A stretch of DNA of 64,000 nt from Candidatus Aenigmatarchaeota archaeon (GTDB lineage: Archaea; Aenigmatarchaeota; Aenigmatarchaeia; GW2011-AR5), in contig JACPAG010000003.1 of NCBI GenBank assembly GCA_016180945.1, positions 39,312-103,311 on the forward strand, in the 5' to 3' direction. Each line of letters begins with the position of its first letter. The first letter of the stretch is position 1. Positions 27,444 through 55,412 of this stretch are shown piece after piece. The position numbers and the translations under genes were made by a program. Below the pieces are notes generated by a model. The model did no database searches. It was not told the DNA's origin and worked only from the letters and a program-made list of their open reading frames with translations.

Positions 27444-27518
27444 CAGGTCACAAAATAAATAATACAATCGAAGAACTTTGTTCTTCGATGCACCGAAGAA
27501 CCTCTGGTTCTTCTTGTG

Positions 27519-27583: not shown

Positions 27584-28534
27584 ATGGATGTTATGTTACG
27601 AAATCAGTTAAACAATACCCTTGCCGAGACAAGCTTTTCTTTCGGGAAATTGTACCGCGGCAAAGTAAGGGACAATTATACAATAAACGGCAGGAGAATA
27701 ATCATTTGCACCGACAGGCTGTCCGCTTTCGACAAGATTATATGTACCATCCCTTTCAAGGGGCAGGTTCTAAACCAGCTGGCTGCCTTCTGGTTCAACG
27801 AGACAAGGCGCATAGCCAAAAATCATCTCATAGAAATGCCAGATGCCAACGCTATCATTGCTAAAGAATGCAAGCCGATTCCAATAGAAATGATAGTCCG
27901 CAGATACATCACAGGCGTCACCAAAACGTCATTGTGGTTCAACTATTCCAAAGGCGAGAGAAAATTTTTCAGCGCAGTGCTTCCGAACAATCTGAAAAAA
28001 GACCAGAAACTGGGCGAGCCTATTATTACGCCGACGACAAAAATGGAAAAGCACGACAGGAATTTGTCAAGGAACGAGATAGAAAAATTCGTCCCGGTGG
28101 ACATATTCCGCCAGATGGAAGAAACATCCTTCAGGCTGTTTGAGTTCGGCTCAGGGCTCGCAGAAAGCCGCGGCCTGATACTCGTCGATACAAAATACGA
28201 GTTCGGCCTGTGCGACGGCGAATTAACGCTGATAGACGAGATGCATACGCCTGACTCGTCCCGTTTCTGGTTTGCGAACACTTATGAAAAATTATTTTCG
28301 CAGGGCCAGCCGCAGCGGGAACTGGACAAAGAATACGTGAGAAGATGGCTCGCTTCAAAGGGCTTTTTGGGCGAAGGTCCTGTTCCTGCAGTTCCGGAAG
28401 ACGTCAGGATAGAAGCGGCAAAAAGATACATAGAGGCTTTTGAAATCCTCACGGACAAAAAATTCGAGCCGGACACCAGAGATGCATCAAAACGGATTGA
28501 AAAAAATCTGATGAAAAAGGGTTATATAGAATAA
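27584..28534 (+). CDS. purC: SAICAR synthetase PurC
   Basis: LYRGKVRDNY, LILVDTKYEFG and HTPDSSRFW motifs. Confidence 0.85.
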   Translation: MDVMLRNQLNNTLAETSFSFGKLYRGKVRDNYTINGRRIIICTDRLSAFDKIICTIPFKGQVLNQLAAFWFNETRRIAKNHLIEMPDANAIIAKECKPIPIEMIVRRYITGVTKTSLWFNYSKGERKFFSAVLPNNLKKDQKLGEPIITPTTKMEKHDRNLSRNEIEKFVPVDIFRQMEETSFRLFEFGSGLAESRGLILVDTKYEFGLCDGELTLIDEMHTPDSSRFWFANTYEKLFSQGQPQRELDKEYVRRWLASKGFLGEGPVPAVPEDVRIEAAKRYIEAFEILTDKKFEPDTRDASKRIEKNLMKKGYIE

Positions 28535-28538
28535 TAAT

Positions 28539-28655
28539 CTGGCTATCGACTAGGAACAAACCGACGCAGAACAGACCGACGCAAGACAAATAGACGCACA
28601 GCAGTGCGTCAGTCTGGTTTGCGTCAAGTTGTCTTGTGTCTAGGTGTGTGGGATA
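28539..28655 (+). promoter_or_regulatory. Leader motif with a ~94-nt palindromic insert between the 5' box (CTGGCTATCGAC) and the 3' box (GTGGGATA)
   Basis: The insert contains the hairpin GACGCAC-AGCA-GTGCGTC and outer CAAACCGACG...CGTCAAGTTGTC arms, which are shared with the element at 61172-61220. Confidence 0.55.
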
Positions 28656-30023: not shown

Positions 30024-30700
30024 AGACAAAGATTCCTATAGCTTCAGCCACAAAGCGAATGATAATTGAAACAATGACTGATGTCTCTGCTTTACCTGAG
30101 ATGATTATGGTGGCACATTCAACAAAATCTTCTATAAGAATCAAAATCCTAGCACTACGTAACCCCCTGTCGATAGAAGAAATAAAGGAAAAAAGTGCAT
30201 CCATAAAAGAAAAACTGTTTTCTATGGAAGTATTCAGGAATTCAAAAGTAGTTTTTTTCTATGTATCCGTTGGGAGTGAGGTACAGACACATGATATGAT
30301 AAAAGAAATATTGGATAAAAAAAAGGTTGCTGTTCCGATGCCGGAAAAAGCAAACAAAACCCTGTCGGCTTCGGAGTTACTTAATTTTAACGAATTAGAA
30401 CCGGGTTCTTTCTCCATACTAGAACCAAAAAAAGAATTTGTAAGAATAGTTAACCCAAAAGATTTGGATTTGGTCGTTGTTCCCGGGATAGCATTTGACA
30501 AAAAAGGGAACAGAATCGGTCACGGCCGCGGTTATTTTGACAGGTTTCTGGAAAATATATCAGTGCCAAAAATTGCCCTTGCATATGAAATGCAGATTGT
30601 AGATAACATACCGGCAGACAAAAATGATGTCGGTGTGGATTTCATTGTAACGGAAAAAAGAATTATCAGATGCGAAAAAGAAGATAAAAGAGGAAATTGA
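30020..30700 (+). CDS. 5-formyltetrahydrofolate cyclo-ligase (MTHFS)
   Basis: VPGIAFDKKGNRIGHGRGYFDRFL is the family signature. Confidence 0.7.
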   Translation: MKTKIPIASATKRMIIETMTDVSALPEMIMVAHSTKSSIRIKILALRNPLSIEEIKEKSASIKEKLFSMEVFRNSKVVFFYVSVGSEVQTHDMIKEILDKKKVAVPMPEKANKTLSASELLNFNELEPGSFSILEPKKEFVRIVNPKDLDLVVVPGIAFDKKGNRIGHGRGYFDRFLENISVPKIALAYEMQIVDNIPADKNDVGVDFIVTEKRIIRCEKEDKRGN

Positions 30701-30794
30701 TACAAGCGATACCACCAGTCTCGGACTGGTGGTTCGTGGTGTAAAAAACTTTGTCGTTAATATCAAATGATGCAAGAAGGACTTGCGAGTCCTT
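30701..30794 (+). repeat. R1 dispersed repeat, copy 3 (94 nt identical to copy 4)
   Basis: Begins the base after the MTHFS TGA. Contains a second hairpin AAGGAC-TTGCGA-GTCCTT. Confidence 0.75.
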
Positions 30795-33814: not shown

Positions 33815-33875
33815 AGCTCTTTGATGGATACAAATTTTATAAAGGTTAAGTAAAAGGCAAATGACAGGGCATTAG

Positions 33876-33952
33876 AATTTTTCTTTTCCCAAGGCTTTTC
33901 TTTCTTTAAACCCAAGGGCGTTTCTTTCTTTTCGAAAAAGAAAGAAAAGGGC
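33876..33952 (-). terminator. Terminator-like hairpin with T tracts after purF
   Basis: After the stop, the minus strand reads GCCCTTTTCTTT...AAAAAGAAAGAAAAGG...TTTTCTTTT. Same architecture as 50587-50647 and 48085-48135. Confidence 0.5.
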
Positions 33953-40631: not shown

Positions 40632-40689
40632 GCTTTAACAATTCCGTGAAAGAATTTATAGTTAACCAAGGAAACAAATAGGGTATTAC

Positions 40690-40865
40690 TTCCTTGGTTT
40701 ACTACACGCAGAAAACAAAGTTTTCTGGTGCACCAACTCGAGGAAAGCAAAGCTTTCCTGAGTCTCCAGAAACCTCTGTTTCTGAGAGAAAAGCTTTGCT
40801 TTTTGAGTGTATGTAAAACCAGAAATATTATATGCTTATTCTTTTCTGGTTTCACTATAAAAACG
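40690..40865 (-). repeat. R2 composite palindromic repeat, inverted copy
   Basis: Its reverse complement is near-identical to 52297-52540 across three blocks: TTTATAGTGAAACCAGAAAAGAAT...TTTCTGGTTTTACATACAC, then GGAGACTCAGGAAAGCTTTGC, then TTTCCTCGAGTTGGTGCACCAGAAAACTTTGTTTTCTGCGTGTAG. Confidence 0.7.
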
Positions 40866-40868
40866 AAT

Positions 40869-41807
40869 TTAATCTGGATTTGGATTAAATACCACATTTT
40901 CGGTATTATTTCTAAATGCATTCTCCATTAACACCTGTTCCCCAAGCTTGTCATAGCTTGTTTTTTCAAAGAAGGAAACAGCATCGTCAAATCCTTCTAT
41001 TGTATTGTTTTTTATTGTAGGGAAGCCGCTGCCGACAATTATCCCTCCCCACCCTGCTTTGTAACCCCCCGGATTCTTGAATCTTGGGCTGGGGCCAAAC
41101 CGGTTATTGATTATAGTCGGTGAGCTTCTTAGTATGTCTACGACTTCATGCCCGGAGTCATGAACCCAATTATTCTCGATTAAAATATCTGTGCTGTCGT
41201 GGATGCATATGGGGCACTCCCCGACATTGTGGAGTTCACTGTTCGTCAGGTTAGCCCCTGTCTTCAGGTCCATGGCCCTGTAATCCCTTATTTCCGCATA
41301 GGAGACGACCCCGCTTTCTATATGAAACGTGTTCCAGTCGTATCTTGTCGGCTCTGGGCTGCCTGACTTTATTAGGATTTTATTATCCCGAGTTCCGGTC
41401 GCATTCAGGAAACCTTCAATCCATATTGTAACATGGTTTTCTTCATCCCTGTAGGGCTCTCCTTGGTGAATATACTGGTCCCTTTCCTTGGCAATGCCCT
41501 TCTTCAGCCAGAAAGGAATTGTCATCAAATTGCCGGCGTCTTTATTGGCAGCAACCAGAACTTTTGTCCCCGGCTTTATTATCAGCTTGACACCCTTGGG
41601 CACTATGATGTCTCCGGCAACGCGAATCTCGCCTGACCAGACCTCATCCGAAGTTATGTAGCCGAGCCTTTCCGTATCAGCCATCTCATTTACGCTGTCC
41701 GAAGCTTTGGGGTATACCGCATCAAATGCAACCTTTCCGACGGCCGCTGCAACAGCAATAAAAACAACAGCAAAAACGGCACGGAAAATCTTTTTCCCGA
41801 CTTTCAT
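40869..41807 (-). CDS. Secreted or membrane-anchored protein with right-handed beta-helix (pectate-lyase-like) repeats
   Basis: N-terminal signal anchor and repeated GxNxxI/NN motifs. Confidence 0.45.
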   Translation of the reverse strand: MKVGKKIFRAVFAVVFIAVAAAVGKVAFDAVYPKASDSVNEMADTERLGYITSDEVWSGEIRVAGDIIVPKGVKLIIKPGTKVLVAANKDAGNLMTIPFWLKKGIAKERDQYIHQGEPYRDEENHVTIWIEGFLNATGTRDNKILIKSGSPEPTRYDWNTFHIESGVVSYAEIRDYRAMDLKTGANLTNSELHNVGECPICIHDSTDILIENNWVHDSGHEVVDILRSSPTIINNRFGPSPRFKNPGGYKAGWGGIIVGSGFPTIKNNTIEGFDDAVSFFEKTSYDKLGEQVLMENAFRNNTENVVFNPNPD

Positions 41808-41880
41808 ATTTTTAACATAGTGCCCGTCCTTATTTGAAGCTTTATAAACATCATTTTAAAAATATGCCACTGCAAATAAC

Positions 41881-42048
41881 CTTATGCTTAAAAAAGAGCT
41901 TTTGGACATCCTCGCCTGCCCCAAATGCAAGGGAGACATAGAATACGACAAAAAGAAGAACAAGCTCCTGTGCCGCAAATGCCGCCTTAAATACAGCGTT
42001 CTTGAAGGCGACATCCCGGACATGCTGATAGAAGACGCGGAGAAGTTT
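41881..42048 (+). CDS. Trm112-like small zinc-ribbon protein, 55 aa; not in the ORF track; coordinates +/-3
   Basis: Translation is MLKKELLDILACPKCKGDIEYDKKKNKLLCRKCRLKYSVLEGDIPDML. The stop overlaps the next ATG (TGATG). Confidence 0.5.
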
Positions 42049-42389
42049 TGATGCCTTTTATTCCTGGCTTCTTAAGAGGACGTCGAGGAAATTATTCCAC
42101 TCCTCAGGAGCCTAAGACAATAGGTGTAGAAATGGGTATAGTACTAGTTACTGCCGATGGTCTCGAATCACCTCCTTATTTCTTCTGGGCCAATTGGAAT
42201 TATTCGGCAAGTGGCAAAGTAGTCGTGAGAGGCAAAGAATATCCATTACAAAGAAATGTCGGAATTCCTGTTGATTTAGACCCCCGTGCCCCTGAAGTTA
42301 CTCTTGTATTGACAGACGGAAATGGAGGAGTATTTCGTAAAACTAGGTTATACGATCCGGACTCCCCTGACCACTTAAAAGACGCCTAA
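42048..42389 (+). CDS. Hypothetical protein (orphan-like, AT-rich codon usage)
   Basis: 113-aa ORF coupled to the Trm112-like gene. Confidence 0.35.
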   Translation: MMPFIPGFLRGRRGNYSTPQEPKTIGVEMGIVLVTADGLESPPYFFWANWNYSASGKVVVRGKEYPLQRNVGIPVDLDPRAPEVTLVLTDGNGGVFRKTRLYDPDSPDHLKDA

Positions 42390-42604
42390 TTTATTCCTTG
42401 CGCCAGTTTTAATATTTCTGATTATAAGTAATTTTTCAGTAAGGGAAATCTACAAAGAGCGAAGCTCTTTGAGATGCCAAAGGATTTCTTAATCCTTTGA
42501 GCATGAGTATGAGATAGAGAGAAACCAATTCATAATGGAAGTAGGGTTGATAAGGAATAAAAGGGAATTGGGATGATAAGGGAAAACCGTAGGTTTGCCC
42601 TTAT

Positions 42605-42731
42605 GCTGAGATGGCGGAGCTTGGTCCAACGCGCAAGCCTGGAACGGCCCTTTTCTGCGGAAAAGCGCCGGCGGAAAAACGGCAAGCTTGTATGCCTCGT
42701 GCATGCGGGAGTTCAAATCTCCCTCTCAGCG
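42605..42731 (+). tRNA. tRNA-Ser(GGA) with a ~40-nt intron at the canonical 37/38 position (about 42645-42684)
   Basis: Acceptor stem GCTGAGA/TCTCAGC is perfect. U8, a 3-bp D stem, anticodon stem CAAGC/GCTTG, loop CU-GGA-A, a 16-nt variable arm (ATGC-CTCGT-GCAT), T arm GGGAG-TTCAAAT-CTCCC and discriminator G. Confidence 0.6.
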
Positions 42732-42843
42732 CTGACATGGATTGTAATTTTCTGTATAGAGTGTTGATTAGAATTAAGGCTTACTTGCAGAAAGTCAAAG
42801 CTGAAAAGGATATATATTTAATCACCCATCAATAAAGTTACCT

Positions 42844-44235
42844 ATGCGTCCTGTGCTTGCGAATCTGGGGTTTGTTCTGCAGATTGGCGGGTTCTTCATA
42901 ACATTGCCTGTCGCAGTTGCTTTTTTCTACAACGAAACCCAGCCGCTGATTGCGTTTTTTATAACAGGTTTCGCGCTTTTTATACTGGGTTTTTTATTGA
43001 ACGCGTTCTCCGAAAGGAAGGAAATGGACATAAAGTCATCTTCTATTCTAATCACGGCGACATTCTTCCTTTTAGGGCTTTTCGGTTCTATCCCGTATTT
43101 CTATATTAACATGTTTAATGACGCGGATATTTTCGCGCGATTTACAAATAACTATTTTGAGAGCATATCCGGCTACACGACAACCGGCTTCAGCCTGTTA
43201 ACGAATATAGATTCCCTTCCCAAATCAATAGTATTTTACCGCGGTCTGACGCAGTTCATAGGAGGTTTGGGGATAGTTTTTATACTGCTGGCCTTTTTCT
43301 ACAAAGGCGACACCATAGACTATCTTAGGCGGGTAATGGGGTTGTTAAAGGTCACGGATAGCATAAAAAAATCATTTTTATACGTGCTGGCTATTTACAG
43401 CTTCTATATAGCCGTATTCACAGCCGCTCTGTATTTCCTCGGCTTTACAGACCTTGTAAATACGGTATCCGTGGTTTTCGGTTCCCTCATGACAGGGGGA
43501 CTGTCGCCCGTAAGCGACTTTTCCAGATTTTTGGTATTTCCGGCAAATATAATAATAATTCTTAGCATGTTCTTGGGAGCGACAACATTCGCAATACACT
43601 TCAGGCTTCTTACAGGAAAATTCAGAAAGGCAATGACAAGCGAGCTTATCGCTTTTATTTTGATAATCTTAGGGTTTACAGCACTCCTGACATTCTACTA
43701 TAACATCGAAGCCTCCTTATCCCTTTTCACTGTTGTAAGCGCGTCTTCTACCACCGGCTATAGTACAGTGAACATTTCGGCGTTTAGTGAAACGCTTAAG
43801 ATAATCTTTGTATTTCTGATGATAATAGGAGGTACCAGCGTTTCGACAGCGGGCGGCATGAAAATCTTGAGGCTGTTGGTATACCTGAAAGCTGTGCCGT
43901 GGGCTGTAAGATGGGCTGTATACGGAAAAGAGCAAAAATTTGTGTTTGACGAAAGGGAATTTACGCCGTCAGAAATAATACTCAGCTTGTTGGTAACGCT
44001 GATGGCATTGACCACTATAGTAGTTTCTGCAGTTATCTTTACGGCCGCCGGCTTTCCTTTCATAAACTCCTTGTTTGAATCCGCCTCTGCGTTCGCAACT
44101 GCCGGCTTGTCAACAGGAATAGTGTCTCTGTCTCTGGCCCCCGCCTTGAAATGGCTGCTGGCTCTTGTAATGATATTGGGCAGAATAGAGATAATACCTT
44201 TCCTGATTATATTCACAAGAAAGAAGGCGACTTAA
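42844..44235 (+). CDS. trkH: TrkH/KtrB-family potassium transporter
   Basis: Repeated pore-loop motifs GYTTTGFS, TTGYST, GGMK, AGLSTG. Confidence 0.75.
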   Translation: MRPVLANLGFVLQIGGFFITLPVAVAFFYNETQPLIAFFITGFALFILGFLLNAFSERKEMDIKSSSILITATFFLLGLFGSIPYFYINMFNDADIFARFTNNYFESISGYTTTGFSLLTNIDSLPKSIVFYRGLTQFIGGLGIVFILLAFFYKGDTIDYLRRVMGLLKVTDSIKKSFLYVLAIYSFYIAVFTAALYFLGFTDLVNTVSVVFGSLMTGGLSPVSDFSRFLVFPANIIIILSMFLGATTFAIHFRLLTGKFRKAMTSELIAFILIILGFTALLTFYYNIEASLSLFTVVSASSTTGYSTVNISAFSETLKIIFVFLMIIGGTSVSTAGGMKILRLLVYLKAVPWAVRWAVYGKEQKFVFDEREFTPSEIILSLLVTLMALTTIVVSAVIFTAAGFPFINSLFESASAFATAGLSTGIVSLSLAPALKWLLALVMILGRIEIIPFLIIFTRKKAT

Positions 44236-44327
44236 ATCTGGCGTATGTAAATATCTAAGTTATCTTTATTTGTGGTAATGTGTATAGTAATGCAGGAATC
44301 CAAAAACAGTGGTTATCAAGAAATAAT

Positions 44328-44359
44328 ATGGCAATCGACTTTTGCCGGAGCAAAAGGGG
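44328..44359 (+). promoter_or_regulatory. Leader motif copy (ATGGCAATCGAC-TTTTGC-CGGA-GCAAAA-GGGG) ending at the CBS gene ATG
   Basis: Exact motif. Confidence 0.6.
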
Positions 44360-44797
44360 ATGTTTGGCGGGATAATAAAAAATTACAAGCTGGCAGAAAT
44401 TGCGGAGAAATGCGACTCCATAAGCGCGAAAGCTACCGTTCTGGACTTCGTAAATCTCGCGCGGCAGAAAAACGCAGAGGTCATGCCTGTTGTTGATGAG
44501 GATGAAAGAGTAATCGGGATAGTAACGGAAAAAGACCTTCTCAAGCTGGTTAAGATAGAAGGACCGGCATCCAACTATCCTATTATAGAGAAAAGCCTGC
44601 CTAAAGAAGTGGTTAACAGGCCCATAACATCTATAATGACACAAAATCCTGTTCTGCTGAAAGAAACGTCATCTCTTGAAGACGCCATGAACCTGATCCT
44701 GAACCATGACTTCAGGCGAGTTATCGTAGTCGATTCGCAGAACCGCCTTGTCGGCAAGCTGAGGATTGCCGACATTATACATCAGCTTTCTAAGTGA
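44360..44797 (+). CDS. CBS-domain pair protein
   Basis: Two CBS motifs. Start set at the ATG following GGGG. Confidence 0.7.
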   Translation: MFGGIIKNYKLAEIAEKCDSISAKATVLDFVNLARQKNAEVMPVVDEDERVIGIVTEKDLLKLVKIEGPASNYPIIEKSLPKEVVNRPITSIMTQNPVLLKETSSLEDAMNLILNHDFRRVIVVDSQNRLVGKLRIADIIHQLSK

Positions 44798-44825
44798 GTA
44801 CAAAATGCAAATAAAAATAGATAAT

Positions 44826-44893
44826 ATGGCATACGACTATGGCGCTTATAGCGACAGAGGGGTATTTGGCGCTTATAGCGACAGAGGGGTATT
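44826..44893 (+). promoter_or_regulatory. Leader motif copy with an internally duplicated tail
   Basis: ATGGCATACGAC-TATGGCGCTTATAGCGACAGAGGGGTATT, then GGCGCTTATAGCGACAGAGGGGTATT repeated, then ATG. Confidence 0.6.
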
Positions 44894-46045
44894 ATGACAG
44901 ACCTGTTTCTTGGAATAGCAATCCTTTTGTTTTCTGCCAAATTATTAGGCGAACTTTTCGAGCGGCTTAACCTTTCTTCGCTGGTAGGGGAAATTTTTGC
45001 AGGCATAATAGTCGGCCCTGTTCTCGGGCTTGTAATGCCGTCAGAAGACTTGCGCCTGGTCACGAATTTCGGTATTCTGCTGCTGCTGTTTTTGATAGGG
45101 CTTTCTACAAAGTTTGACGAGGTGAAGAGCAACGTTTATGTCGGAAGCGCCCTTGCAATAGGCGGCTGCACCCTTGCGTTTCTGGGAGGCTTTTTAGTCG
45201 GCTATCTGGTTTTCAACAGCGTTCAGGTAGGCATAATACTCGGCGTTGCAGTCATATCAACAAGCACCGCCATAACGTTGCGTTCGCTCACTGACATAGG
45301 CGCCTTCCAGTCGAAGCCTTACAAGCTGGCACTGGCGATAGACATAGCAGACGAGGTCATAGCTATAATGGCGCTGGCTTTGCTGACAAGCTATTTCTCT
45401 TTTGGGGCTGTTGAGATATGGAAGGTTGTGACATTGTTCCTAGCAGTATTGGGCTTCTTCTTTTTCATCCTCACCGCCGGCTCAAAGATTTTAGGAAAGT
45501 TCCTGTCATTGTTCCAGACAATGCGCGACGAGCAGATCGTGCTTTCCATACCGCTTGTCATCCTTTTCTTTATAGCATTTGTCAGCGAGCATGTCGGTGT
45601 CGCCGCCGTAACAGGCGCGTTTCTTGCAGGAGTCGCAATAAACAAATCCCCCCTCGTCGAGCCTGTAATTGTGCCCAAAGTCAAGGCAATGTCTTACGGA
45701 TTTTTCGTCCCGATGTTTTTCGCCTATTCGGCCGTTCTTTTGGACGTGAAATCAGTCATAACGTTCTTCCCGGCCATACTAGCACTAATAGCAACCGTTT
45801 CTTTAGGAAAAGTTCTTGGGTGCGGATTTCTGGCCAAATATTTCGGTTATAACGGTTTTGACCAGAAACTCATAGGCATAGGCATGATACCGCACGGCGA
45901 ATATAGCATCATCATCGCCCAGCTGGCCCTGCTCGGCGGCTTCATAAAGCCGGAGCTGTACACAATCGTAATAGCGTTTGTTATCATAAGCATCGTCATT
46001 ACGCCCCTGCTGCTGAAACTGGTAAACGGCAGGAATAGGTTTTAA
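44894..46045 (+). CDS. Cation:proton antiporter (CPA/Kef/NapA-type)
   Basis: 383 aa with ~12 TM helices and the CPA motif GEIFAGIIVGP. Confidence 0.7.
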   Translation: MTDLFLGIAILLFSAKLLGELFERLNLSSLVGEIFAGIIVGPVLGLVMPSEDLRLVTNFGILLLLFLIGLSTKFDEVKSNVYVGSALAIGGCTLAFLGGFLVGYLVFNSVQVGIILGVAVISTSTAITLRSLTDIGAFQSKPYKLALAIDIADEVIAIMALALLTSYFSFGAVEIWKVVTLFLAVLGFFFFILTAGSKILGKFLSLFQTMRDEQIVLSIPLVILFFIAFVSEHVGVAAVTGAFLAGVAINKSPLVEPVIVPKVKAMSYGFFVPMFFAYSAVLLDVKSVITFFPAILALIATVSLGKVLGCGFLAKYFGYNGFDQKLIGIGMIPHGEYSIIIAQLALLGGFIKPELYTIVIAFVIISIVITPLLLKLVNGRNRF

Positions 46046-46054
46046 ATATATTGA

Positions 46055-46148
46055 TACAAGCGATACCACCAGTCTCGGACTGGTGGTTCGTGGTGTAAAA
46101 AACTTTGTCGTTAATATCAAATGATGCAAGAAGGACTTGCGAGTCCTT
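46055..46148 (+). repeat. R1 dispersed repeat, copy 4 (identical to copy 3 over ~94 nt)
   Basis: Starts 10 nt after the antiporter stop. Confidence 0.75.
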
Positions 46149-46231
46149 TATCAAAAAGGATTTGAAGATTTCGAGGAAGGAATTTAAAAAATGCCTTTAA
46201 AAACTGTTGGAAATAAATTTAGGCGATACCT

Positions 46232-46747
46232 ATGGGATTAAGACCCGGAAGATGCTATACAAAGCTGCAGCGCCCGTATACGCGCCAGTCTATCCACGTC
46301 CCGAGAAAAGGCTACGTCAAGGGGGTGCCGAAGGCGAAGATAACCGAATTCCAGCTCGGCAAGGATAAGACATATGAAAACAGGCTTTATCTCGTCTCGA
46401 CGCGCGACGTCCAGATACGGCATAATTCTCTGGAGTCAGCCCGTGTCTCGGCCATCCAGATATTGGAAAAGCATCTGGGAAAGCTGTCCGACTTCTTTTT
46501 CAAAGTCCGCGTGTATCCGCACCAGGTCCTGAGGGAAAATTCCATGGCAACAGGCGCCGGCGCAGACCGTTTCCAGCAGGGCATGAGGCAGTCTTTTGGA
46601 AAGCCTGTTGGAACAGCAGCCCGCGTCAAAAAAGGCCAGGCGATTTTAGAAATACGCGTCAATAAAGTCGGCATAGCCGTCGTCAAAAAAGCCATGAAAC
46701 AGGCGCAGTACAAACTGCCGGTGCCATGCAGGATTGTAGTGGAGTAA
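46232..46747 (+). CDS. rpl10e: 50S ribosomal protein L10e (uL16)
   Basis: RPGRCYT...GMRQSFGKP signature. Confidence 0.9.
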   Translation: MGLRPGRCYTKLQRPYTRQSIHVPRKGYVKGVPKAKITEFQLGKDKTYENRLYLVSTRDVQIRHNSLESARVSAIQILEKHLGKLSDFFFKVRVYPHQVLRENSMATGAGADRFQQGMRQSFGKPVGTAARVKKGQAILEIRVNKVGIAVVKKAMKQAQYKLPVPCRIVVE

Positions 46748-46779
46748 AGAAATTTTAATCTTATTCTTCAATTAGAAGC

Positions 46780-46872
46780 ATGTCTAAGAAGGTATTTCTT
46801 GTGCATGGATGGGAAGGAGGCCCGGAGAAAGACTGGATTCCCTGGGTGAAGAGAGAACTGGAGAAATCTTGA
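46780..46872 (+). pseudogene. 30-codon remnant of an alpha/beta-hydrolase (YdeN/RBBP9-like) gene
   Basis: MSKKVFLVHGWEGGPEKDWIPWVKRELEKS then a stop. This matches the N-terminus of serine hydrolases of that family. Confidence 0.3.
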
Positions 46873-46920
46873 ATCGTTGAAAGAAAACCAGAAGATGGAT
46901 GCAATTCTTAGAATTCAGAT

Positions 46921-47553
46921 TTAAGCCTCTTTTTCTTCCCTTTGAACGATTTCTTTATCCGGCTCGTAGCCGAAATCTTCCGGCTTTAGAGTGAATTCTT
47001 CGTTCCGTTTTTTCTTTATGAGCTGCGCAAGAAGCCATAAAATAAGTGCCAAAGACTTCTTGCCTTTGTTGTTGCACGGCAGCACAAAATCCAGGTACGC
47101 CGTCTCGTTGAAGGTATCGCAAAGCCCTATGATGGGTATTCTCATCTGTATGGCCTCTTTCAGGGCCTGCTTGTCCGCCAAAGGGTCTGTAACTATCATG
47201 ATTTCCGGCTCAAAAAATTCCTTGTAGGTCGGGTTTGTCAGCGAGCCCGGCATGAACCTTCCAACTACGGCTTTTCCGCCAACCGCTTCTGCAAACTTTT
47301 CCGCCGGCTCAAATCCGACCTCCTTTCTGGCTACAATAAGTATTCTCCTCCTCTGCGCCAGAAGGTTGGAAATAATATCGATCTTTTTGTCCAGCAGGCC
47401 TACGTTTAGCACAGCCAGTCCCGTAGGCCTTATTTTATAGATAAATCTTTTCATGTCGGCCGTCTTTGACGTCATTCCGATGTGCACGCCAGCCGACAGG
47501 TATTTTTCCTTCGGTATGAGGAGTTTTTCTTTTGCTTTAGTCACAAGTATCAC
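46921..47553 (-). CDS. rps2: 30S ribosomal protein S2 (uS2)
   Basis: YLSAGVHIG...DM..FIY signature. Confidence 0.85.
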   Translation of the reverse strand: MILVTKAKEKLLIPKEKYLSAGVHIGMTSKTADMKRFIYKIRPTGLAVLNVGLLDKKIDIISNLLAQRRRILIVARKEVGFEPAEKFAEAVGGKAVVGRFMPGSLTNPTYKEFFEPEIMIVTDPLADKQALKEAIQMRIPIIGLCDTFNETAYLDFVLPCNNKGKKSLALILWLLAQLIKKKRNEEFTLKPEDFGYEPDKEIVQREEKEA

Positions 47554-47562
47554 AAAAACAGT

Positions 47563-47757
47563 TTATTCCTGAGCTGCAGGCATTCTCCTCTTCACGGTTA
47601 TAGGCAGTATGCCTTTTTCAAATTCCTGCTTTGCTATTTCTTTTGGGTCGTGCAGCTCCGTCTTTATCAGAACGGGCGCGCCCATGGAAATCTGCAGAGA
47701 CCTGGCGGAGATTATGCGCGTTTTTTCGAATCTCGTCAATCCTTCGTAATTGAACAT
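47563..47757 (-). CDS. rpoK: DNA-directed RNA polymerase subunit K (Rpo6)
   Basis: GLTRFEKTRIISARSLQISMGAPVLI. Start at Met21 of the ORF-track ORF. Confidence 0.8.
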   Translation of the reverse strand: MFNYEGLTRFEKTRIISARSLQISMGAPVLIKTELHDPKEIAKQEFEKGILPITVKRRMPAAQE

Positions 47758-47857
47758 GAAAGCACCCAAAAACAGTCCGGAATGTTGAATCATACAGCAA
47801 ACACAAGTATTAAGCAAAAACCTTTAATATGTTACTTTTATTGAAAATAATCATTTT

Positions 47858-48135
47858 ACATATTTTCTTTTCTGCAGAAGACGTTTGTCTTCTGAGAAAT
47901 CCAAGAAAGCTTTTGCTTTCTTAGGATTTGACTGCAAGCAGAAACCACAAGGTTTCTGATGTCTCGAAAAGCTCTGCTTTTCGCAGACAAGCTACTTTCT
48001 CCCCTTTGCTTCGCAACTCGAAGAAAGCAGAGCTTTCTTGAGTCGCCAAAATGCTTCGCATTTTGCGCGAAGTCGAGAGCCATTTTATTCTTTTCCGCAA
48101 GCGCTTTTCTTTCTAAGAAAAGGGCTTAAAGGAGC
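47858..48135. repeat. Hairpin-rich intergenic element ending in a terminator-like hairpin with T tracts
   Basis: Contains CAGAAGAC-GTTT-GTCTTCTG, GAAGAAAGC-AGA-GCTTTCTT and (AAGAAAAGGGCTT). Confidence 0.5.
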
Positions 48136-48903
48136 TTAACCTATGTATCTTATATCTTCTTTCGGCTTTGGCATTTCCTGGAGTATTTTCTTGTGGATTT
48201 TATCCGTCTTCTTTATCCTTTCTTCCATCTCTTTTATGGTCTTTTCAAGCCTTGAAAGGTCAACCTTGATTCCGAGTATCTTTGCCAGAACCTGAAGAAC
48301 CTTATCCGCGGCTTTGGGGTCGGTTACAAGCGGCAGCCCTATGGTCTCGCCCATCAGGCACACGCCGTCTATGTTGTACAGCTTTCCGAGACCTAACAGC
48401 AGGCCGGATGCCCCTACTATAGTCCCGATGGAATGCTCCTTTCCGAAATCTATGCCGTATTTTTCGTAAATCTTCAGCAGCTTTTTGTCGTTTACAGAAC
48501 CTATGACCCGCGGCTCTTCAACAACCCGGCCTTCGGCAAAACCGCCAAGTGTTATTATGTCGCTTACGCCCAGCTTTTGTGCAAAAGCCAGTATTTTTTC
48601 GCAGATTTCGTAGTGCCCTTCCGGCGATATGCTTTGCGTGTCGCCCGTCAGGATTATTATGTCCCTGTTCTTGGATTTGCAGTAATAGAATTCGTTTTTC
48701 AGCACGTGCGAAACAGAGTCATCGTGTATAATAACCAGAGGCAGAAAATGCGGCGAGTACAGTTCTGCAAATTTCTTCATCTTCATCTCGCTTACAAGAT
48801 AGCCGGCTGCCACCCTTCCAACGTTTCCTATTCCCGGCAGTCCCTCTACAAGAATGGGCTTTCTGAGCTTGACCTTCTCGAGCTGCTTTATAATCGTCTC
48901 CAT
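48136..48903 (-). CDS. PAC2-family proteasome assembly chaperone
   Basis: VEGLPGIGNVGRVAAGYL N-terminal signature. Confidence 0.65.
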   Translation of the reverse strand: METIIKQLEKVKLRKPILVEGLPGIGNVGRVAAGYLVSEMKMKKFAELYSPHFLPLVIIHDDSVSHVLKNEFYYCKSKNRDIIILTGDTQSISPEGHYEICEKILAFAQKLGVSDIITLGGFAEGRVVEEPRVIGSVNDKKLLKIYEKYGIDFGKEHSIGTIVGASGLLLGLGKLYNIDGVCLMGETIGLPLVTDPKAADKVLQVLAKILGIKVDLSRLEKTIKEMEERIKKTDKIHKKILQEMPKPKEDIRYIG

Positions 48904-48935
48904 AATCCCCTAACCTTCGGTTAGTCGATAGCCAT
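48904..48935 (-). promoter_or_regulatory. Leader motif copy (ATGGCTATCGAC-CTAACC-GAA-GGTTAG-GGGATT) directly 5' of the PAC2 ATG
   Basis: Exact motif on the minus strand. Confidence 0.6.
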
Positions 48936-49010
48936 CTTATAGATGTTTGCTCCTTTCAGTCGTAAGTCTATCCCATATTATTTTAATTTATGAATTATCT
49001 ATATGTTCCG

Positions 49011-49160
49011 CTATTTATACGTTGCCTTTGCCATTCTCCTGTATTTGCCGAAGCGGTCTTCCGAAGAAAACTTGGGCGGGTGAGGCGTTCTGGTTTTCTC
49101 GCCGCAATGCCCGTCAGCGAGCAGGTAGCTGCCGCATTTCACGCATTTTTTAAGCATCAT
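49011..49160 (-). CDS. nop10: H/ACA RNP protein Nop10, 49 aa; not in the ORF track
   Basis: Translation is MMLKKCVKCGSYLLADGHCGEKTRTPHPPKFSSEDRFGKYRRMAKATYK. Lies in the conserved aIF2-alpha, Nop10, PAC2 synteny. Confidence 0.75.
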   Translation of the reverse strand: MMLKKCVKCGSYLLADGHCGEKTRTPHPPKFSSEDRFGKYRRMAKATYK

Positions 49161-49204
49161 TTCCAAAACATCTCACCTTATAGTGAATGACATAATATTT
49201 AAGA

Positions 49205-49300
49205 CATTTTATATGTCATTTACATACACGCAAAAAGCAAAGCTTTTTGGTGCACCAGAAAACTCTATTTTCTGTGTGTAGCACGGACATCCTAATATGT
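49205..49300. repeat. Short version of the R2 repeat
   Basis: TTACATACACGCAAAAAGCAAAGCTTTTTGGTGCACCAGAAAACTCTATTTTCTGTGTGTAG. Confidence 0.6.
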
Positions 49301-49320
49301 CTGAATACTTATGTCCGATG

Positions 49321-50076
49321 CTATAGTACCTTGACTTCCGCTTCTGCGTCCGGCTTGGCCAGCGACACGATTGTGTCCATCTTTTCCAGAAACTCCTTTT
49401 CCCCTTTTTTCGCGTTTTTGGTCTTGTATTTTACCAGATATTCAGGCGCGCTTATGTACTTTACTTCCAGATTCATTTTTTCCGCCTTTGCCAGAATGTC
49501 CTTTATAATGTTTACGCCGTTTTCCTTGTAAGACCTGAGAAACAGCTTTGACGCGAATACAAACTCTTTCTGCTCGATATTCTTTTCCGCAACCTCTTTT
49601 AGCAGCGCAATCCATTTTTCGTCAATCTCTTTTTTCTTCAGCGCCTCCGTGTCGCTTAGTGCCCTTTTGAACCCTTCGTACAGCGAACCAAAACTCTCCT
49701 GAAGAAGAAATCCGATTTCGCTATAAACCTCGTCCAGTCTTTTGCCCGCCTTCTGGGCAACAATCTCCAGCATCTTCTCCGCCTTCTGGTTCAGGTTGTA
49801 TTCCTTCATCTTGTCTTTTTTTTGCTTCTCGTCAACGCGTTTCAGCGATAAACTCAGTCCTCTGTCGTCAACCCTCACGACCTTTGCTATTACGCTCTGC
49901 CCCTCCTTGATGTGGTTTCTTATGTCCCTTACCCAGCCGCTGCTTACCTCAGAGATGTGTATCATGCCTTCGGCGTCGTATTCTTCCAGCACGGCAAAAG
50001 CCGAATTCGGATTAAGCCTGCTTATTTTGCAGATTACAACCTCGCCCAGAGAAGGAAGACCGCGCTTTTTTACCAT
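49321..50076 (-). CDS. eif2a: Translation initiation factor 2 subunit alpha (aIF2-alpha)
   Basis: S1 domain LPSLGEVVICKI... and a helical/C-terminal domain. Confidence 0.85.
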   Translation of the reverse strand: MVKKRGLPSLGEVVICKISRLNPNSAFAVLEEYDAEGMIHISEVSSGWVRDIRNHIKEGQSVIAKVVRVDDRGLSLSLKRVDEKQKKDKMKEYNLNQKAEKMLEIVAQKAGKRLDEVYSEIGFLLQESFGSLYEGFKRALSDTEALKKKEIDEKWIALLKEVAEKNIEQKEFVFASKLFLRSYKENGVNIIKDILAKAEKMNLEVKYISAPEYLVKYKTKNAKKGEKEFLEKMDTIVSLAKPDAEAEVKVL

Positions 50077-50085
50077 TTTTTCGCC

Positions 50086-50418
50086 TCAATACAATTTTCC
50101 GCCTGCTGGAACATTCCGTTCAGGCTGGATTAATATGCAGTCATGATTTTCATCAGGAACGCCCAGCGTCAATACCTCGGAAATTTCAGGACCAATATGT
50201 TTCGGCGGAAAATTCACTACGCATAGAACCAATTTATTTTTCAACTCCGCCTTACTGTAATTTTTCACAAGCTGGGCACATGATTTTTTAATGCCGATTT
50301 CTTTCCCAAAATCAATCTTCAATTTATACGTTGGTTTCTTTGCTTCAGGAAAATCCTCTACTTCGGCGATTTTCCCAACCCTGATATCCAATTTCTGAAA
50401 ATCGTCAAATGTAGCCAT
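50086..50418 (-). CDS. tRNA-binding domain protein (Trbp111/CsaA-like)
   Basis: FQKLDIRVGKIAEVEDFPEAKKPTYKLKIDFG. Confidence 0.7.
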   Translation of the reverse strand: MATFDDFQKLDIRVGKIAEVEDFPEAKKPTYKLKIDFGKEIGIKKSCAQLVKNYSKAELKNKLVLCVVNFPPKHIGPEISEVLTLGVPDENHDCILIQPERNVPAGGKLY

Positions 50419-50585
50419 AACTTATCCCTATTATGGATAATTTTCTTTCTTTTCTCAGAAGACATTCGTCTTCTGGAAACTCCAGAAAGCTTTGCAAGCG
50501 GAGAATCAGAGATTCTCCGATGCATCAATGAGCTTTGCTGGCGTTTCTTTATCCCCTAACTTCGTTAGTCGATAGCCATATTACT
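50419..50585 (-). promoter_or_regulatory. Leader motif with a ~110-nt hairpin-rich insert between the boxes
   Basis: From the distal end toward the ATG (minus strand): ATGGCTATCGAC-CTAAC-GAAG-TTAG-GGGATAAAG, then hairpins (CAGAAGAC...GTCTTCTG, GGAGAATC...GATTCTCC, GAAAGCTTTGC...), then GGGATAAGTT-ATG. Confidence 0.55.
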
Positions 50586-50586
50586 T

Positions 50587-50647
50587 ATATATTTTCTTTT
50601 CCCAAGGCTTTTCTTTTTAAAAAGAAAAGGCTTAAAGAAAAGGGCTT
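50587..50647 (-). terminator. Terminator-like hairpin with T tracts after rps27e
   Basis: After the stop, the minus strand reads AAGCCCTTTTCTTTAAGCCTTTTCTTTTTAAAAAGAAAAGCC. Confidence 0.5.
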
Positions 50648-50824
50648 TTACTTGTCCAGAACCTGCATAGCCTTCGTCTTTATGTCGGCCATCCCGCCGC
50701 GCGGTTCTGCTAATACTTTGCCGCATACAAGGCATTTGACGACTGTCGCGGCATGGCTGAACAGTATCTGCTCATTGCGGCATTTCACGCACTTGACCTT
50801 CAAAAACTTGCTTTCCGGCTCCAT
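50648..50824 (-). CDS. rps27e: 30S ribosomal protein S27e, 58 aa; not in the ORF track
   Basis: Translation is MEPESKFLKVKCVKCRNEQILFSHAATVVKCLVCGKVLAEPRGGMADIKTKAMQVLDK, a C4 zinc finger. Confidence 0.8.
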   Translation of the reverse strand: MEPESKFLKVKCVKCRNEQILFSHAATVVKCLVCGKVLAEPRGGMADIKTKAMQVLDK

Positions 50825-50864
50825 TATCCCCTTTGCTCCGCAAAGTCGATTGCCATATTAATAA
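50825..50864 (-). promoter_or_regulatory. Leader motif copy (TTAATATGGCAATCGAC-TTTGC-GGA-GCAAA-GGGGATA) 5' of rps27e
   Basis: Exact motif. The flanking GAGCGTAGCGACCAAACATT is also found upstream of priS at ~20135. Confidence 0.6.
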
Positions 50865-50991
50865 TGTTTGGTCGCTACGCTCCAATCGGAATAATTGGAT
50901 AGAAGGTTTAAATAAGTAAATAAATATCTTCCTGTCGTACTTCAAGACCCCTTAAATAATTTGCGCCTAATAGAATTCTCGTTGAGGTGGA

Positions 50992-51309
50992 TTGTTCATG
51001 AAACCGGATGATATATTGGAAATCATAGAAATTTCCAGGGATACGGGAAAAATAAGAAAGGGCGTTAACGAAGCGACTAAGGCGGTGGAGCGCGGTGTTG
51101 CACAGGCGATTGTTGTCGCAGACGATGTGGACCCGCCAGAGATCGTGATGCACCTCCAGCCGTTGTGCGACGAAAAAAAGATCTTGTTGTTCAGGGTGCC
51201 AAGCAAAAACGAGCTTGGCCGTGCGGCCGGCATCAACGTTTCTACGGCGGCCGTGGCTATCATGGACGCAGGAGAAGCCAAGAAAAAACTAGGCGAAGCG
51301 GCGAAATAA
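50992..51309 (+). CDS. rpl7ae: 50S ribosomal protein L7Ae (K-turn binding)
   Basis: [19 protein letters not shown]... Confidence 0.85.
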
Positions 51310-51316
51310 GCAAAAT

Positions 51317-51571
51317 TTGTCAATGTATAAAATGATAGCTATGTCAGAACCAGGAATTGGGTTTCATGTCAGGCGTATTTTAATTAGGCCTGACGGAAGC
51401 AGAGAAGATGAGGGACTAATTTTCCCACAGGGATACGACCAAATGAAAACCGGTTCTCTCCTTCCTTATCCGACGATGGATGAAGCAAGATTAGCAAAGC
51501 AGCAAATTTTAGCAGAAGGTTTACCATCGGGTAGGACATTAGTAATTTACAGCGTAAATGAAGTAGAATAA
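51317..51571 (+). CDS. Hypothetical orphan protein inserted between rpl7ae and rps28e
   Basis: 84-aa ORF, AT-richer with different codon usage. It splits the conserved L7Ae-S28e-L24e cluster. Confidence 0.35.
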   Translation: MSMYKMIAMSEPGIGFHVRRILIRPDGSREDEGLIFPQGYDQMKTGSLLPYPTMDEARLAKQQILAEGLPSGRTLVIYSVNEVE

Positions 51572-51572
51572 A

Positions 51573-51791
51573 GTGATGTTGATGCCAACCGATGCAATGC
51601 CTGCCGAAATAATAACGATATTAGGCAGGTCAGGAAACAAGGGAATATTCAGCGTTAAATGCAAGGTGCTGGACGGCCGGGACAAGGGAAAAGTGCTTAC
51701 AAGAAACGTTATCGGCCCCGTGCGGCTGGGCGATGTTCTGATGCTGCGCGACACAGAGATGGAAGCGTCCGAATCTTACGGCAGGCGATAA
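51573..51791 (+). CDS. rps28e: 30S ribosomal protein S28e
   Basis: AEIITILGRSGNKG...VLTRNVIGPVRLGDVLMLRDTE. Confidence 0.85.
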   Translation: MMLMPTDAMPAEIITILGRSGNKGIFSVKCKVLDGRDKGKVLTRNVIGPVRLGDVLMLRDTEMEASESYGRR

Positions 51792-51794
51792 GCT

Positions 51795-51945
51795 CCTTTT
51801 TCTTTAGAAAAGAAAAAGTAGCTTGTCTGTGGAAAGCAAGAGCTTTCCAAGATCTCAGAAACCAGAAGGTTTCTGCAGACAGTCAAAAAGAAAATAATAA
51901 TTTATATAATATGGCTATCGACTCTGCGAAGCAGAGGGGATGTAT
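51795..51945 (+). promoter_or_regulatory. Hairpin-rich element followed by a leader motif copy (ATGGCTATCGAC-CTCTGC-GAA-GCAGAG-GGGATGTAT) before rpl24e
   Basis: Nested hairpins GTCTG-TGGAAAGC-AAGA-GCTTTCCA...CAGAAACC-AGAA-GGTTTCTG-CAGAC, then TTTATATAAT plus the motif. Confidence 0.55.
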
Positions 51946-52104
51946 ATGGCTAAGTGTTCATTTTGCAGTTCATCGATAGAAGCAGGCACTGGAAAAACGA
52001 TTATCCAGAAAACCGGCAAGATAAGCTACTTCTGCTCCAAAAAATGCGAAAAAAACCTGTTCAAGCTGGGCCGTGACCCGAGAAAATTCAAATGGGCTCA
52101 ATAA
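51946..52104 (+). CDS. rpl24e: 50S ribosomal protein L24e, 52 aa; not in the ORF track
   Basis: Translation is MAKCSFCSSSIEAGTGKTIIQKTGKISYFCSKKCEKNLFKLGRDPRKFKWAQ. Confidence 0.8.
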   Translation: MAKCSFCSSSIEAGTGKTIIQKTGKISYFCSKKCEKNLFKLGRDPRKFKWAQ

Positions 52105-52295
52105 TGTCCGAATTTATAAGAGATATTAGAAGGAATTTTTCTCACGACTTTAGTGAAAGGCCCGTTTCGGCAATTGGCGAAGCTTGCCTTGTATTTTCTC
52201 TTCCTCTGTACCTCATGACAGGCAACACCTATGCCGGTGGTGCGGCAGCCATATCCAGTATAATAACAGCTACAGGTTATGTACTTGGCCGCTAG
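52105..52295 (+). CDS. Possible small membrane protein
   Basis: ORF track 52092-52295. An internal Met follows the rpl24e stop. One hydrophobic segment. Confidence 0.25.
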
Positions 52296-52296
52296 T

Positions 52297-52540
52297 TAGA
52301 TAACTCCTTTTATAGTGAAACCAGAAAAGAATCGGTATATTAATTTCTGGTTTTACATACACACAAAGAAGCATAGCTTCTTCTCCAAGAGGCCAAAGGT
52401 CTCTGGAGACTCAGGAAAGCTTTGCAAGCGGAGAATCTGGGATTCTCCGATGCACCAATGAGCTTTGCTCATTGCTTGCTTTCCTCGAGTTGGTGCGCCA
52501 GAAAACTTTGTTTTCTGCGTGTAGTCAGCAAGGATGTAAT
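52297..52540 (+). repeat. R2 composite palindromic repeat, direct copy with an extra ~50-nt module
   Basis: Near-identical to the reverse complement of 40690-40865. The extra module GAAAGCTTTGCAAGCGGAGAATCTGGGATTCTCCGATGCACCAATGAGCTTTGCT also occurs at 50470-50530. Confidence 0.7.
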
Positions 52541-52594
52541 ATGCTGTTTGTTTCCTTGCATGACTATAAATTTCCAGACGATTATATATTTAAC

Positions 52595-54000: not shown

Positions 54001-54095
54001 CGCAATACCACTATTGTTATTAAACGTATAGATTTTAAATCTAACGATAAACCTATATGTTATCGGTATAAAAATAGATTTAGGACAATGTTAGA

Positions 54096-54272
54096 AATGA
54101 TGTGGCAATCGCCTCATCAAAAATTACAAACGAATGCCTATGGCATTCGTTGCATCGAAGACCAAAGGTCTTCAGTGCATCAAAAGACTTTGCGAAGTCT
54201 TCGAAGATGCTCTTGCATCTTCGAGATTCCGAAGGAACTTTGTTCCTTCGAGAACAGAGGGGAGAGGGGATT
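54096..54272 (+). promoter_or_regulatory. Leader motif (variant 5' box ATGGCAATCGCC) with a ~150-nt insert of four hairpins before GAGGGGAGAGGGGATT-ATG
   Basis: Hairpins CGAAGACC-AAA-GGTCTTC, AAAGACTT-TGCG-AAGTCTT, CGAAGATGC-TCT-TGCATCTTCG and CGAAGG-AACTTT-GTTCCTTCG. The upstream ATG is in frame, so the ORF track shows a false 57-aa extension. Confidence 0.55.
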
Positions 54273-55055: not shown

Positions 55056-55079
55056 GATGGAAGAAATGATAACATTATA

Positions 55080-55230
55080 GCTGACCAACTTAGTATTTAG
55101 TATACCACAAAAGTTGGTCACATACATGGTAAAGCAGAGCTTTACCTGTACAGGAGAATCTTTGATTCTCCATGTATAGTAAACCAAGTTATAATATCGA
55201 GATTCTTTACTTGGTTAACTATAAAGCTGC
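55080..55230. repeat. Cluster of four hairpins between convergent genes
   Basis: TGACCAACTT...AAGTTGGTCA, GGTAAAGC-AGA-GCTTTACC, GGAGAATC-TTT-GATTCTCC and AACCAAGT...ACTTGGTT. Confidence 0.45.
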
Positions 55231-55412
55231 CTAAAAAAGACATCGATTCTTTTCTTAGAGTAGTTAATGATATAAAATTCATTAAAGAAGCAAAAAAAGG
55301 GGACGAAGAAATATCCAAAGGCAAATTCAAGACACTCGAACACGTAATAAAAAAATACGGAGTTCAGCGGTAGAATTCTTTGTATTTCTCCGATTTTCTT
55401 TTACCTCTTTCT

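Follow-up and report, generated by a model that had tools for sequence, protein, structure and literature searches.

What kind of element is R2, a composite palindromic repeat of roughly 200 nt that recurs in both orientations within a 64,000-nt stretch of an archaeal genome, and how did its copies reach the places where they now lie? The stretch (hereafter the window) covers positions 39,312 to 103,311 of contig JACPAG010000003.1 of a Candidatus Aenigmatarchaeota archaeon (assembly GCA_016180945.1). [quoted passage not shown] We make this assignment because the elements are small, have long inverted ends, are bounded by a 2-bp TA duplication and have empty counterpart sites in relatives. R2 is a newly described family of a well-known kind of element. 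Four full copies, all within 15 kb, were identified in the window and are given below, with the extra module of copy B.

40659-40857 (-): R2 copy A, 199 bp, with TA at 40657-40658 and 40858-40859; bordered by the stop of a lineage-specific beta-helix gene on one side and the start of purM on the other, inside an ancestral TTTTTAAATT box upstream of purM
49181-49323 (+): R2 copy C, the minimal form with four hairpins, 143 bp, with TA at 49179-49180 and 49324-49325; at the penultimate codon of the eIF2-alpha gene (minus strand), its opposite end facing nop10
52313-52566 (+): R2 copy B, 254 bp, with TA at 52311-52312 and 52567-52568; between ORF63 and a CBS-domain gene
52422-52475 (+): extra module of copy B, ~54 nt, two hairpins, present in B but not in A as judged from pairwise alignment and folds
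55078-55221 (+): R2 copy H, 144 bp, four hairpins, with TA at 55076-55077 and 55222-55223; in a convergent spacer downstream of a peptidase A24 gene

The first-pass annotation of this DNA had described near-identical copies in opposite orientations, and for A and B this was borne out: the segment 52308-52572 matches the reverse complement of 40653-40862 with 87-89% identity in two blocks, split by a segment present only in B, at BLAST E-values within the window of 1e-28 to 1e-29. The bounds then given (40690-40865 and 52297-52540) were too narrow and omitted the second terminal hairpins (40659-40700 in A and 52526-52566 in B), which are 84% similar to each other. Likewise, the shorter version placed at 49205-49300 exists, its actual extent being that of C, whereas H was overlooked altogether. 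The additional ~50-nt module attributed to the second copy was recovered at about 52422-52475, with boundaries uncertain by a few nt owing to flanking GCTTTGC/GCTTGC repeats; it is nested in the loop of a hairpin, AGGAAAGC/GCTTTCCT, that is intact in A. The genes flanking the four copies are mutually unrelated and each set is syntenic with relatives, and relative to those genes A and B point one way and C the other. Ribosomal-protein and translation genes make up most of the window, and its first 40 kb, which are rich in ribosomal proteins, hold no R2 copy; against this background the concentration of copies around such genes suggested in the first pass is no more than a possibility.

Each R2 copy is a long imperfect palindrome with ends 5'-TAG(T/C)...(A/G)CTA-3' (termini TAGTGAAACC/TAGTTAACC and similar), and its inverted arms of ~75 nt are ~70% alike, as seen in A, B and C when the left half was aligned to the right half in reverse complement. 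The order within an arm is TAG(T/C), a perfect hairpin of 7-10 bp with a 16-20-nt loop, the linker TAC(A)TACAC and finally a short hairpin of 6-9 bp with a 3-5-nt loop. The centre is variable, being absent in C and H, made of two hairpins in A and enlarged by the nested two-hairpin module in B. All copies are non-coding and built entirely of hairpins. Compared with shuffled sequences, the RNA folds of A and B have z scores of -9.4 and -8.6, respectively, and the DNA folds of C and H, which adopt the four-hairpin form, have z scores of -7.8 to -8.5 on either strand. The terminal hairpins are perfectly paired in all eight cases (7-10-bp stems) despite having seven distinct stem sequences, and compensatory changes between A and B were seen in several stems, the A/B pair counts being noisy as the whole-element minimum-free-energy fold of A adopts a long-range alternative pairing. 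Because MAFFT/RNAalifold on nine half-elements misaligned the variable terminal stems and recovered the short hairpin alone, a hand-written descriptor (TATAG, a perfect long-loop hairpin and TACA[CT]) was used instead of a covariance model. It matched the window eight times, at both ends of the four elements, and had no match in 20 Markov shuffles.

Evidence for insertion came from comparison with relatives. By Pfam and open reading frame (ORF) reading the gene content of the window is archaeal (ribosomal proteins L24e, S27e, S28e, L7Ae and L10e, eIF2-alpha, Nop10, PAC2, Rpb6 and a purine-synthesis cluster); its PurM is 100% identical to MBI2076212.1 from a Candidatus Aenigmarchaeota metagenome-assembled genome (MAG), and its eIF2-alpha homologues point to the same phylum, whereas exact-protein look-ups with L24e and S28e gave no record. 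Homologues of PurM, eIF2-alpha and the CBS protein were used to retrieve orthologous loci, of which L078 (93% PurM identity), L079, L080, L081, L086, L090 and L091 were compared; a further comparison involved a 20-kb syntenic stretch of a distant Aenigmarchaeote (64% eIF2-alpha identity).

A TA dinucleotide lies on both sides of all four R2 copies, and the empty sites of relatives hold a single TA, for which reason duplication of TTAA or TATA was rejected. Removal of A with one TA leaves GAAAGAATTTAAAAACGAA, which is identical to L078 across the junction and matches L079 and L080; the site is empty in L078, L079, L080 and L081. At the B site the reconstructed sequence is TCCTTTTAAATTTCC, compared with TCTTTTTAAATTTCC in L090, and L091 is likewise empty. 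With C and one TA removed, the window aligns gap-free to L086 (43 of 50 positions), L080 being likewise empty, and the end of eIF2-alpha is restored (...KVLR-stop in the window, ...KVIK-stop in L086). In L091, at about the place of H, there is an R2-type element in the opposite orientation whose terminal hairpins are 87.5% identical to those of H and whose inner hairpins are of the same type but of different sequence. Duplications at every copy and empty sites for three of them uphold the MITE-like reading of the first pass, which had also proposed comparing loci with and without the element.

These features agree with what is known of prokaryotic MITEs, for which lengths below 200 bp or, in another account, of 50-800 bp are given, along with inverted repeats and TA at the termini and duplicated target sites. 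The R2 copies, at 143, 144, 199 and 254 bp, fall within the limits of about 50-800 bp and encode no transposase, their inverted ends of ~75 nt exceed the 10-15 bp expected as a minimum of terminal repeats, and presence and absence at orthologous sites were established for A, B and C. Duplication of TA is a known signature of IS630/Tc1-mariner transposition, and for the pneumococcal RUP element mobilisation in trans by IS630-Spn1, with TA as the target, has been proposed (PMC2229807). IS630 has archaeal representatives (PMC13343696), some DPANN genomes are reported to be dense in MITEs (PMC11602168), and four archaeal families, SM1-SM4, have been described in Sulfolobus (PMC10969869). The RUP or IS630-derived and the Sulfolobus SM-type MITEs represent the closest mechanistic class, as they share the TA target, inverted ends, a length of about 100-200 bp, the lack of coding capacity and dispersed copies, in R2 the four of the window. 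One Sulfolobus MITE is tied to an insertion sequence (IS) of the IS630 family. By analogy, a transposase supplied in trans would cut R2 at its inverted ends and paste it into a TA, duplicating that TA, as IS630/Tc1-mariner enzymes are known to do. Assignment to this enzyme family is conjectural and comes from the TA duplication, since no cognate IS with ends matching those of R2 is known. The end sequence TA|TAGTGAA... represents a handle for finding the transposase responsible.

Several results weigh against R2 being such a transposon family. Pfam scans of the 79 ORFs revealed neither a transposase nor a longer element with R2 ends within the 64 kb. To our knowledge, perfect hairpin stems are not required in IS630/Tc1-mariner transposition. 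The 11-13% difference between A and B does not support very recent activity, no empty counterpart of the H site was found among the relatives' loci, and the promoter and RNA-level consequences discussed below rest on sequence geometry only. In addition, pattern scans of genome, metagenome and viral collections gave chance matches only and no genome-wide copy count. The genome-collection scan with TATAGTGAAN{15,45}TTACATACAC gave 77 single matches in unrelated bacteria and none in an archaeon, not even returning the source genome, with a pattern too specific in that H and the copies of relatives would escape it. A stricter pattern gave one chance match in the metagenomes, on an AT-rich, repeat-rich contig, and none in the viral collection, where a looser pattern gave 11 scattered single matches that were not inspected. 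Neither the phage nor the plasmid collection gave a BLASTN match to B. Many chance matches of the first scan (L002, L005, L007, L009, L013, L014, L016 and others, from Lachnospiraceae/Clostridia MAGs) share an identical 34-nt span, which suggests a conserved sequence that would be unrelated to R2.

Evidence that the family extends beyond the window was obtained from other assemblies. Three short-read assembly runs of the same organism end exactly at 40730, within A, and three more end exactly at 49296, within C. As the 30-mers at these break points each occur only once in the window, the breaks imply that further R2 copies would be present elsewhere in the genome, and R2 accounts for the failure of short-read assemblies at these loci. 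In relatives, the L080 contig starts within an R2 end (...TTTCTGGTTTAACTA|TA), and L080 has two 95-bp, TA-flanked, two-hairpin relatives of R2 with ends TACTGAATGACA and a terminal hairpin 84% identical to that of C. These and the flipped H-type copy are family members carried by the ~77% relative GCA_053537215.1. The descriptor scan found no R2 end in the 20-kb syntenic stretch of the distant Aenigmarchaeote.

The construction of R2 from hairpins also suggests REP/BIME-like palindromes, in which the hairpins would be the mobile or selected units, spread by a RAYT (a Y1 transposase of the IS200/IS605 type), and the composites would be mosaics. Short perfect hairpins are indeed ~13-fold over expectation in the window, mostly in non-coding DNA, they occur in arrays as well as in the interior of R2, and the same stem types are found in the distant relative. 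The mosaic organisation recalls BIMEs, a separate class (PMC2229807). However, ~75-nt inverted arms, a TA duplication and exact empty sites are not produced by REP/RAYT transposition. One account (PMC3733652) defines REPs as palindromes of 20-40 bp that bear GTAG or CGTC as a 5' tag on one end, leave the target unduplicated and are associated with a RAYT gene; the R2 copies are 143-254 bp long, their GTAG lies 3' of a hairpin, in the linker, and no Y1 transposase domain was found by Pfam in the 79 ORFs. We consider it improbable that R2 belongs to this class, although a REP-like explanation may apply to the generic short hairpins described below. It is decidedly improbable that the copies are structured small RNA (sRNA) genes or cis-regulatory RNAs, such as terminator or stabiliser cassettes, kept by the host and copied by recombination. 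The very stable predicted folds, the compensatory changes that preserve stems and the location of A and B directly after stop codons in sense orientation would all fit RNA genes, and transcripts of bacterial MITEs can serve as sRNAs or terminators (PMC10969869). After insertion R2 may have an RNA role. Nevertheless, no R2 match was found in Rfam 15 even at E <= 1 beyond chance level (only the tRNA gene at 42605-42731 passed), the two strands fold equally well, C points against its flanking genes, T-tails do not follow the hairpins, fragments occur within 5' leaders, and the TA duplications with precise empty sites mark insertion events. The sRNA-gene alternative raised in the first pass finds no support in these observations.

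Two further explanations concern how the copies came to be where they are. Were A and B attC-like cassette sites, they would have arrived with the lineage-specific ORFs that immediately precede them, namely the beta-helix gene for A and ORF63 for B, both of which are absent in all relatives examined, and attC sites are likewise imperfect palindromes. This is highly improbable. Eight nt of ancestral spacer, AAAACGAA, separate A from the inserted gene, the TA duplication bounds the element alone, and C and H have no cargo. The core sites of attC (R''/R') read RYYYAAC ... GTTRRRY, and no such sites are present at the ends of R2, which are TAGTGAA... and ...AACTA or ...GACTA; the GTTAACT of A is not GTTRRRY and B has no GTT. 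No integrase domain was found in the 79 ORFs and there is no cassette array, the copies being dispersed singly. The ancestral spacers, moreover, are only about 35-75 nt long, and any insertion would have to fall within them. Finally, misassembly of a metagenomic bin can create repeats, and short-read assemblies do break at A and C, but the chance that R2 is an assembly artefact or a segmental duplication is next to negligible. A duplication that includes the flanking genes, which the first pass had named as an outcome that would overturn its reading, is excluded because the flanking genes differ; the syntenic neighbourhoods, the 11-13% divergence and the different modules of the copies, and three independent runs that reproduce the junctions up to the break points argue against an artefact.

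With R2 placed among the MITEs, its closest functional analogue is the Correia element of Neisseria (CREE/NEMIS), to which it has no homology. Both are small and non-coding, with long inverted ends, insertion at TA and TA flanks (PMC2649163, PMC10969869), and including the TA the terminus of both reads TATAG(T/C)G... (TATAG[CT]GGATTAA... in Correia), with no sequence homology past the first 7 nt. As is seen or predicted for R2, Correia elements are mostly intergenic, can create promoter elements at either end, form hairpins in read-through RNA and have length variants; in-place inversion has also been reported for them, which may be compared with the opposite orientations of H and its L091 counterpart. 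Unlike R2, Correia is bacterial and provides sigma-70 -10/-35 boxes, whereas R2 has an archaeal TATA-like box; the inverted ends of Correia pair into a single long hairpin, whereas each arm of R2 forms two local hairpins, and roles of IHF and RNase III are known for Correia. BOX and BIME elements resemble R2 in being mosaics of hairpin units that cluster and insert into one another (PMC10969869), but the combination of ~75-nt inverted arms with a TA duplication, present in R2, is not what defines them. Rickettsia palindromic elements are listed among such families (PMC10969869). The insertion of C into the eIF2-alpha gene resembles these elements, although C replaces only the last residue and the stop codon. 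The Rickettsia elements are palindromic, selfish, resident in a reduced genome and tolerated within coding sequence, where they are in frame and translated.

How could such elements be accommodated in a genome that is 86% coding? The ancestral spacers, ~35-75 nt long, are the only permissive places. Joined to the TA and the flank, an R2 end gives CTATAA(A/G), a sequence similar to the TATA box of archaea. A and B lie at T-rich or TATA-like sites upstream of purM and the CBS gene, respectively, and both recreate CTATAAATT. The TTTTTAAATT box that is split by A lies 21 nt upstream of a purM start that appears leaderless, and ACTATAAATT is rebuilt at the same distance. B comes after the T-run that lies downstream of L24e. 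The CBS gene of L090 and L091 carries the lineage's conserved promoter/leader motif (..ATAATATGGCAATCGACT-hairpin-GGGGAT..ATG) that is deleted in the window only, and the B junction places CTATAAATT ~25 nt upstream of the CBS-gene ATG, an arrangement consistent with a putative promoter take-over of that gene by B. The terminal CTA of C gives eIF2-alpha its new stop codon, TAG. Judged from this geometry, surviving insertions appear to be those that would keep the downstream gene expressed. In read-through transcription the stacked hairpins would give very stable structures on either strand.

The genes next to the insertions need separate comment. The beta-helix gene beside A (40869-41807(-), encoding a 312-aa right-handed beta-helix protein) and ORF63 beside B (52104-52295(+), 63 aa, with a hydrophobic tail and overlapping the L24e stop in TAATG) are the two lineage-specific genes mentioned above. 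The possibility that they travelled with the elements was rejected for A, and the gene and A represent separate events, because the ancestral spacer lies between them. The neighbour of C, nop10, is at 49011-49166(-) between PAC2 and eIF2-alpha, encodes 51 aa and shows 88% DNA conservation with L080; a gene of this size is easily overlooked in length-based ORF maps. The idea that insertion of C was coupled to deletion of the nop10 promoter was dropped, as the extra sequence in L086 may be an insertion of its own. Directly after the right end of H an open frame runs from 55224 to 55376(+) and ends ...KLPKKDIDSFLRVVNDIKFIKEAKKGDEEISKGKFKTLEHVIKKYGVQR-stop; it has no canonical start outside the element and could be a small gene that had its 5' end changed when H inserted.

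Through its exact empty sites R2 documents a class II element that looks active in a DPANN archaeon known only without cultivation and having a reduced genome; MITEs are known from surveys of such genomes, but individual families have hardly been described. It illustrates how a compact genome tolerates insertions, at TATA-like boxes and gene ends, by elements that bring their own TATA-like sequence or stop codon, and R2 insertions can serve as strain-level markers for groundwater populations. A more far-reaching view, which we regard as rather unlikely, is that R2 would be more than a selfish MITE: its ends would be portable archaeal TATA boxes that take over downstream genes, and its interior would be drawn from the lineage-wide C-R6-C/G-Y6-G hairpins and exchanged with intergenic arrays. 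If those hairpins were a REP-like system or a recognition code for a DNA- or RNA-binding factor, R2 would spread host regulatory 'punctuation' in a reduced DPANN genome.

The arrays in question include two that share sequence with R2.

50472-50539 (+): array D, part of the interior of a B-type element (68 nt at 91% identity), without element ends
47864-48065 (no strand assigned): array E, six short hairpins, in the Rpb6 leader

Array D is situated in the 5' leader of a tRNA-binding-domain gene, between the promoter/leader motif and the start codon. The first pass had noted this recurrence of the B module (at 50470-50530), which was confirmed and takes in the left flank of the module, and had stated that only the loop was changed, which was not: the loop of hairpin CGGAGAATC/GATTCTCCG is AGA versus TGG and there are three further substitutions. 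Within array E, 48014-48048 is 89% identical to the centre of A over 35 nt, 47864-47913 is 86% identical to D over 50 nt, and 47927-47998 has an inverted match to array F at 51815-51887 (81% over 73 nt); L080 has a 209-aa ORF (3022-3651) at the place of array E. The cassettes proposed as related, those of arrays E and F among them (47858-48060, 51795-51895, 54120-54262 and 42440-42530), are genuine hairpin arrays but not members of R2, as they have no element ends and share modules of at most 35-73 nt with R2 or with one another, and several consist of generic short hairpins that are equally dense in the distant Aenigmarchaeote. As a description, the mosaic shuffling of modules suggested earlier is apt, given the nested module of B with its recurrence in D, and the differing inner hairpins of H and its L091 counterpart. 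The centre of R2 would diversify by recombination or exchange of the generic short hairpins of the lineage.

Those generic hairpins are a pronounced feature of the DNA in their own right. The window contains 54 short perfect hairpins (stem >=8 bp, loop 3-5 nt) compared with 4.3 +/- 2.0 expected, and 42 of them fall in non-coding DNA, which makes up 14% of the window. Nearly all have the form C-purines-C / loop / G-pyrimidines-G, the loop-closing pair being almost always C-G, and the same stem types occur at equal density in the distant Aenigmarchaeote, which lacks R2 in the 20 kb examined. A scan for bacterial-type terminators gave 32 terminator-like sites versus 21.4 +/- 4.8, a weak enrichment, and the R2 hairpins have no T-tails. 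Since the generic hairpins lack T-tails and some are within 5' leaders, they are unlikely, on sequence grounds, to be strong terminators. Arrays of the type C-R6-C / 3-4-nt loop / G-Y6-G were observed in spacers and 5' leaders at 19390-19537, 27467-27513, 42453-42499, 47875-48065, 50456-50519, 51796-51875 and 54129-54250, as well as in L103, L080 and L091.

Additional repeated features of the window were noted. The conserved promoter/5'-leader mentioned above precedes at least 12 genes and consists of an AT-rich box, TGGC(A/T)ATCGACT, a short variable hairpin, GGGGAT, 1-4 nt and ATG. It is found at 133-178, 20184-20230, 23102-23142, 23435-23487, 27511-27585, 28527-28552, 44316-44361, 44814-44866, 48905-48941(-), 50546-50590(-), 50822-50870(-) and 51899-51941, and also in L080, L086, L090 and L091. 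Several of these copies have an upstream GGAGC...AAACAT block in common, and the architecture may represent a promoter or translation signal common to a regulon. Just past gene ends, at 11571-11669, 26963-27011(-), 30696-30794 and 46050-46148, there is a second repeat family (ATACAAGCGATACCACCAGTCTCGGACTGGTGGTTCGTGGTGTAAAAAACTTTGTCG...), of which the copies at 30696 and 46050 are identical (99/99).

The tRNA gene at 42605-42731 contains an intron and was found by Rfam but missed by ARAGORN. Its counterparts in L079 (413-632) and L080 (7988-8280) have an extra insertion of ~80 nt after GGTCCAAC, which holds the hairpin GCCCCTTTCTTT/AAAGAAAGGCCC followed by TTGGGTTCAA; a second such hairpin is present in the other intron of L080. 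This pyrimidine-first type of hairpin also occurs in the window after S27e (50592-50640), at 33872-33949 and at 48095-48130. Lastly, the ~100 nt upstream of the UppS start (54001-54101) are 76% conserved with L091, a coding-like level, with no ORF extension possible, and may represent a small gene or else a leader with a regulatory role.

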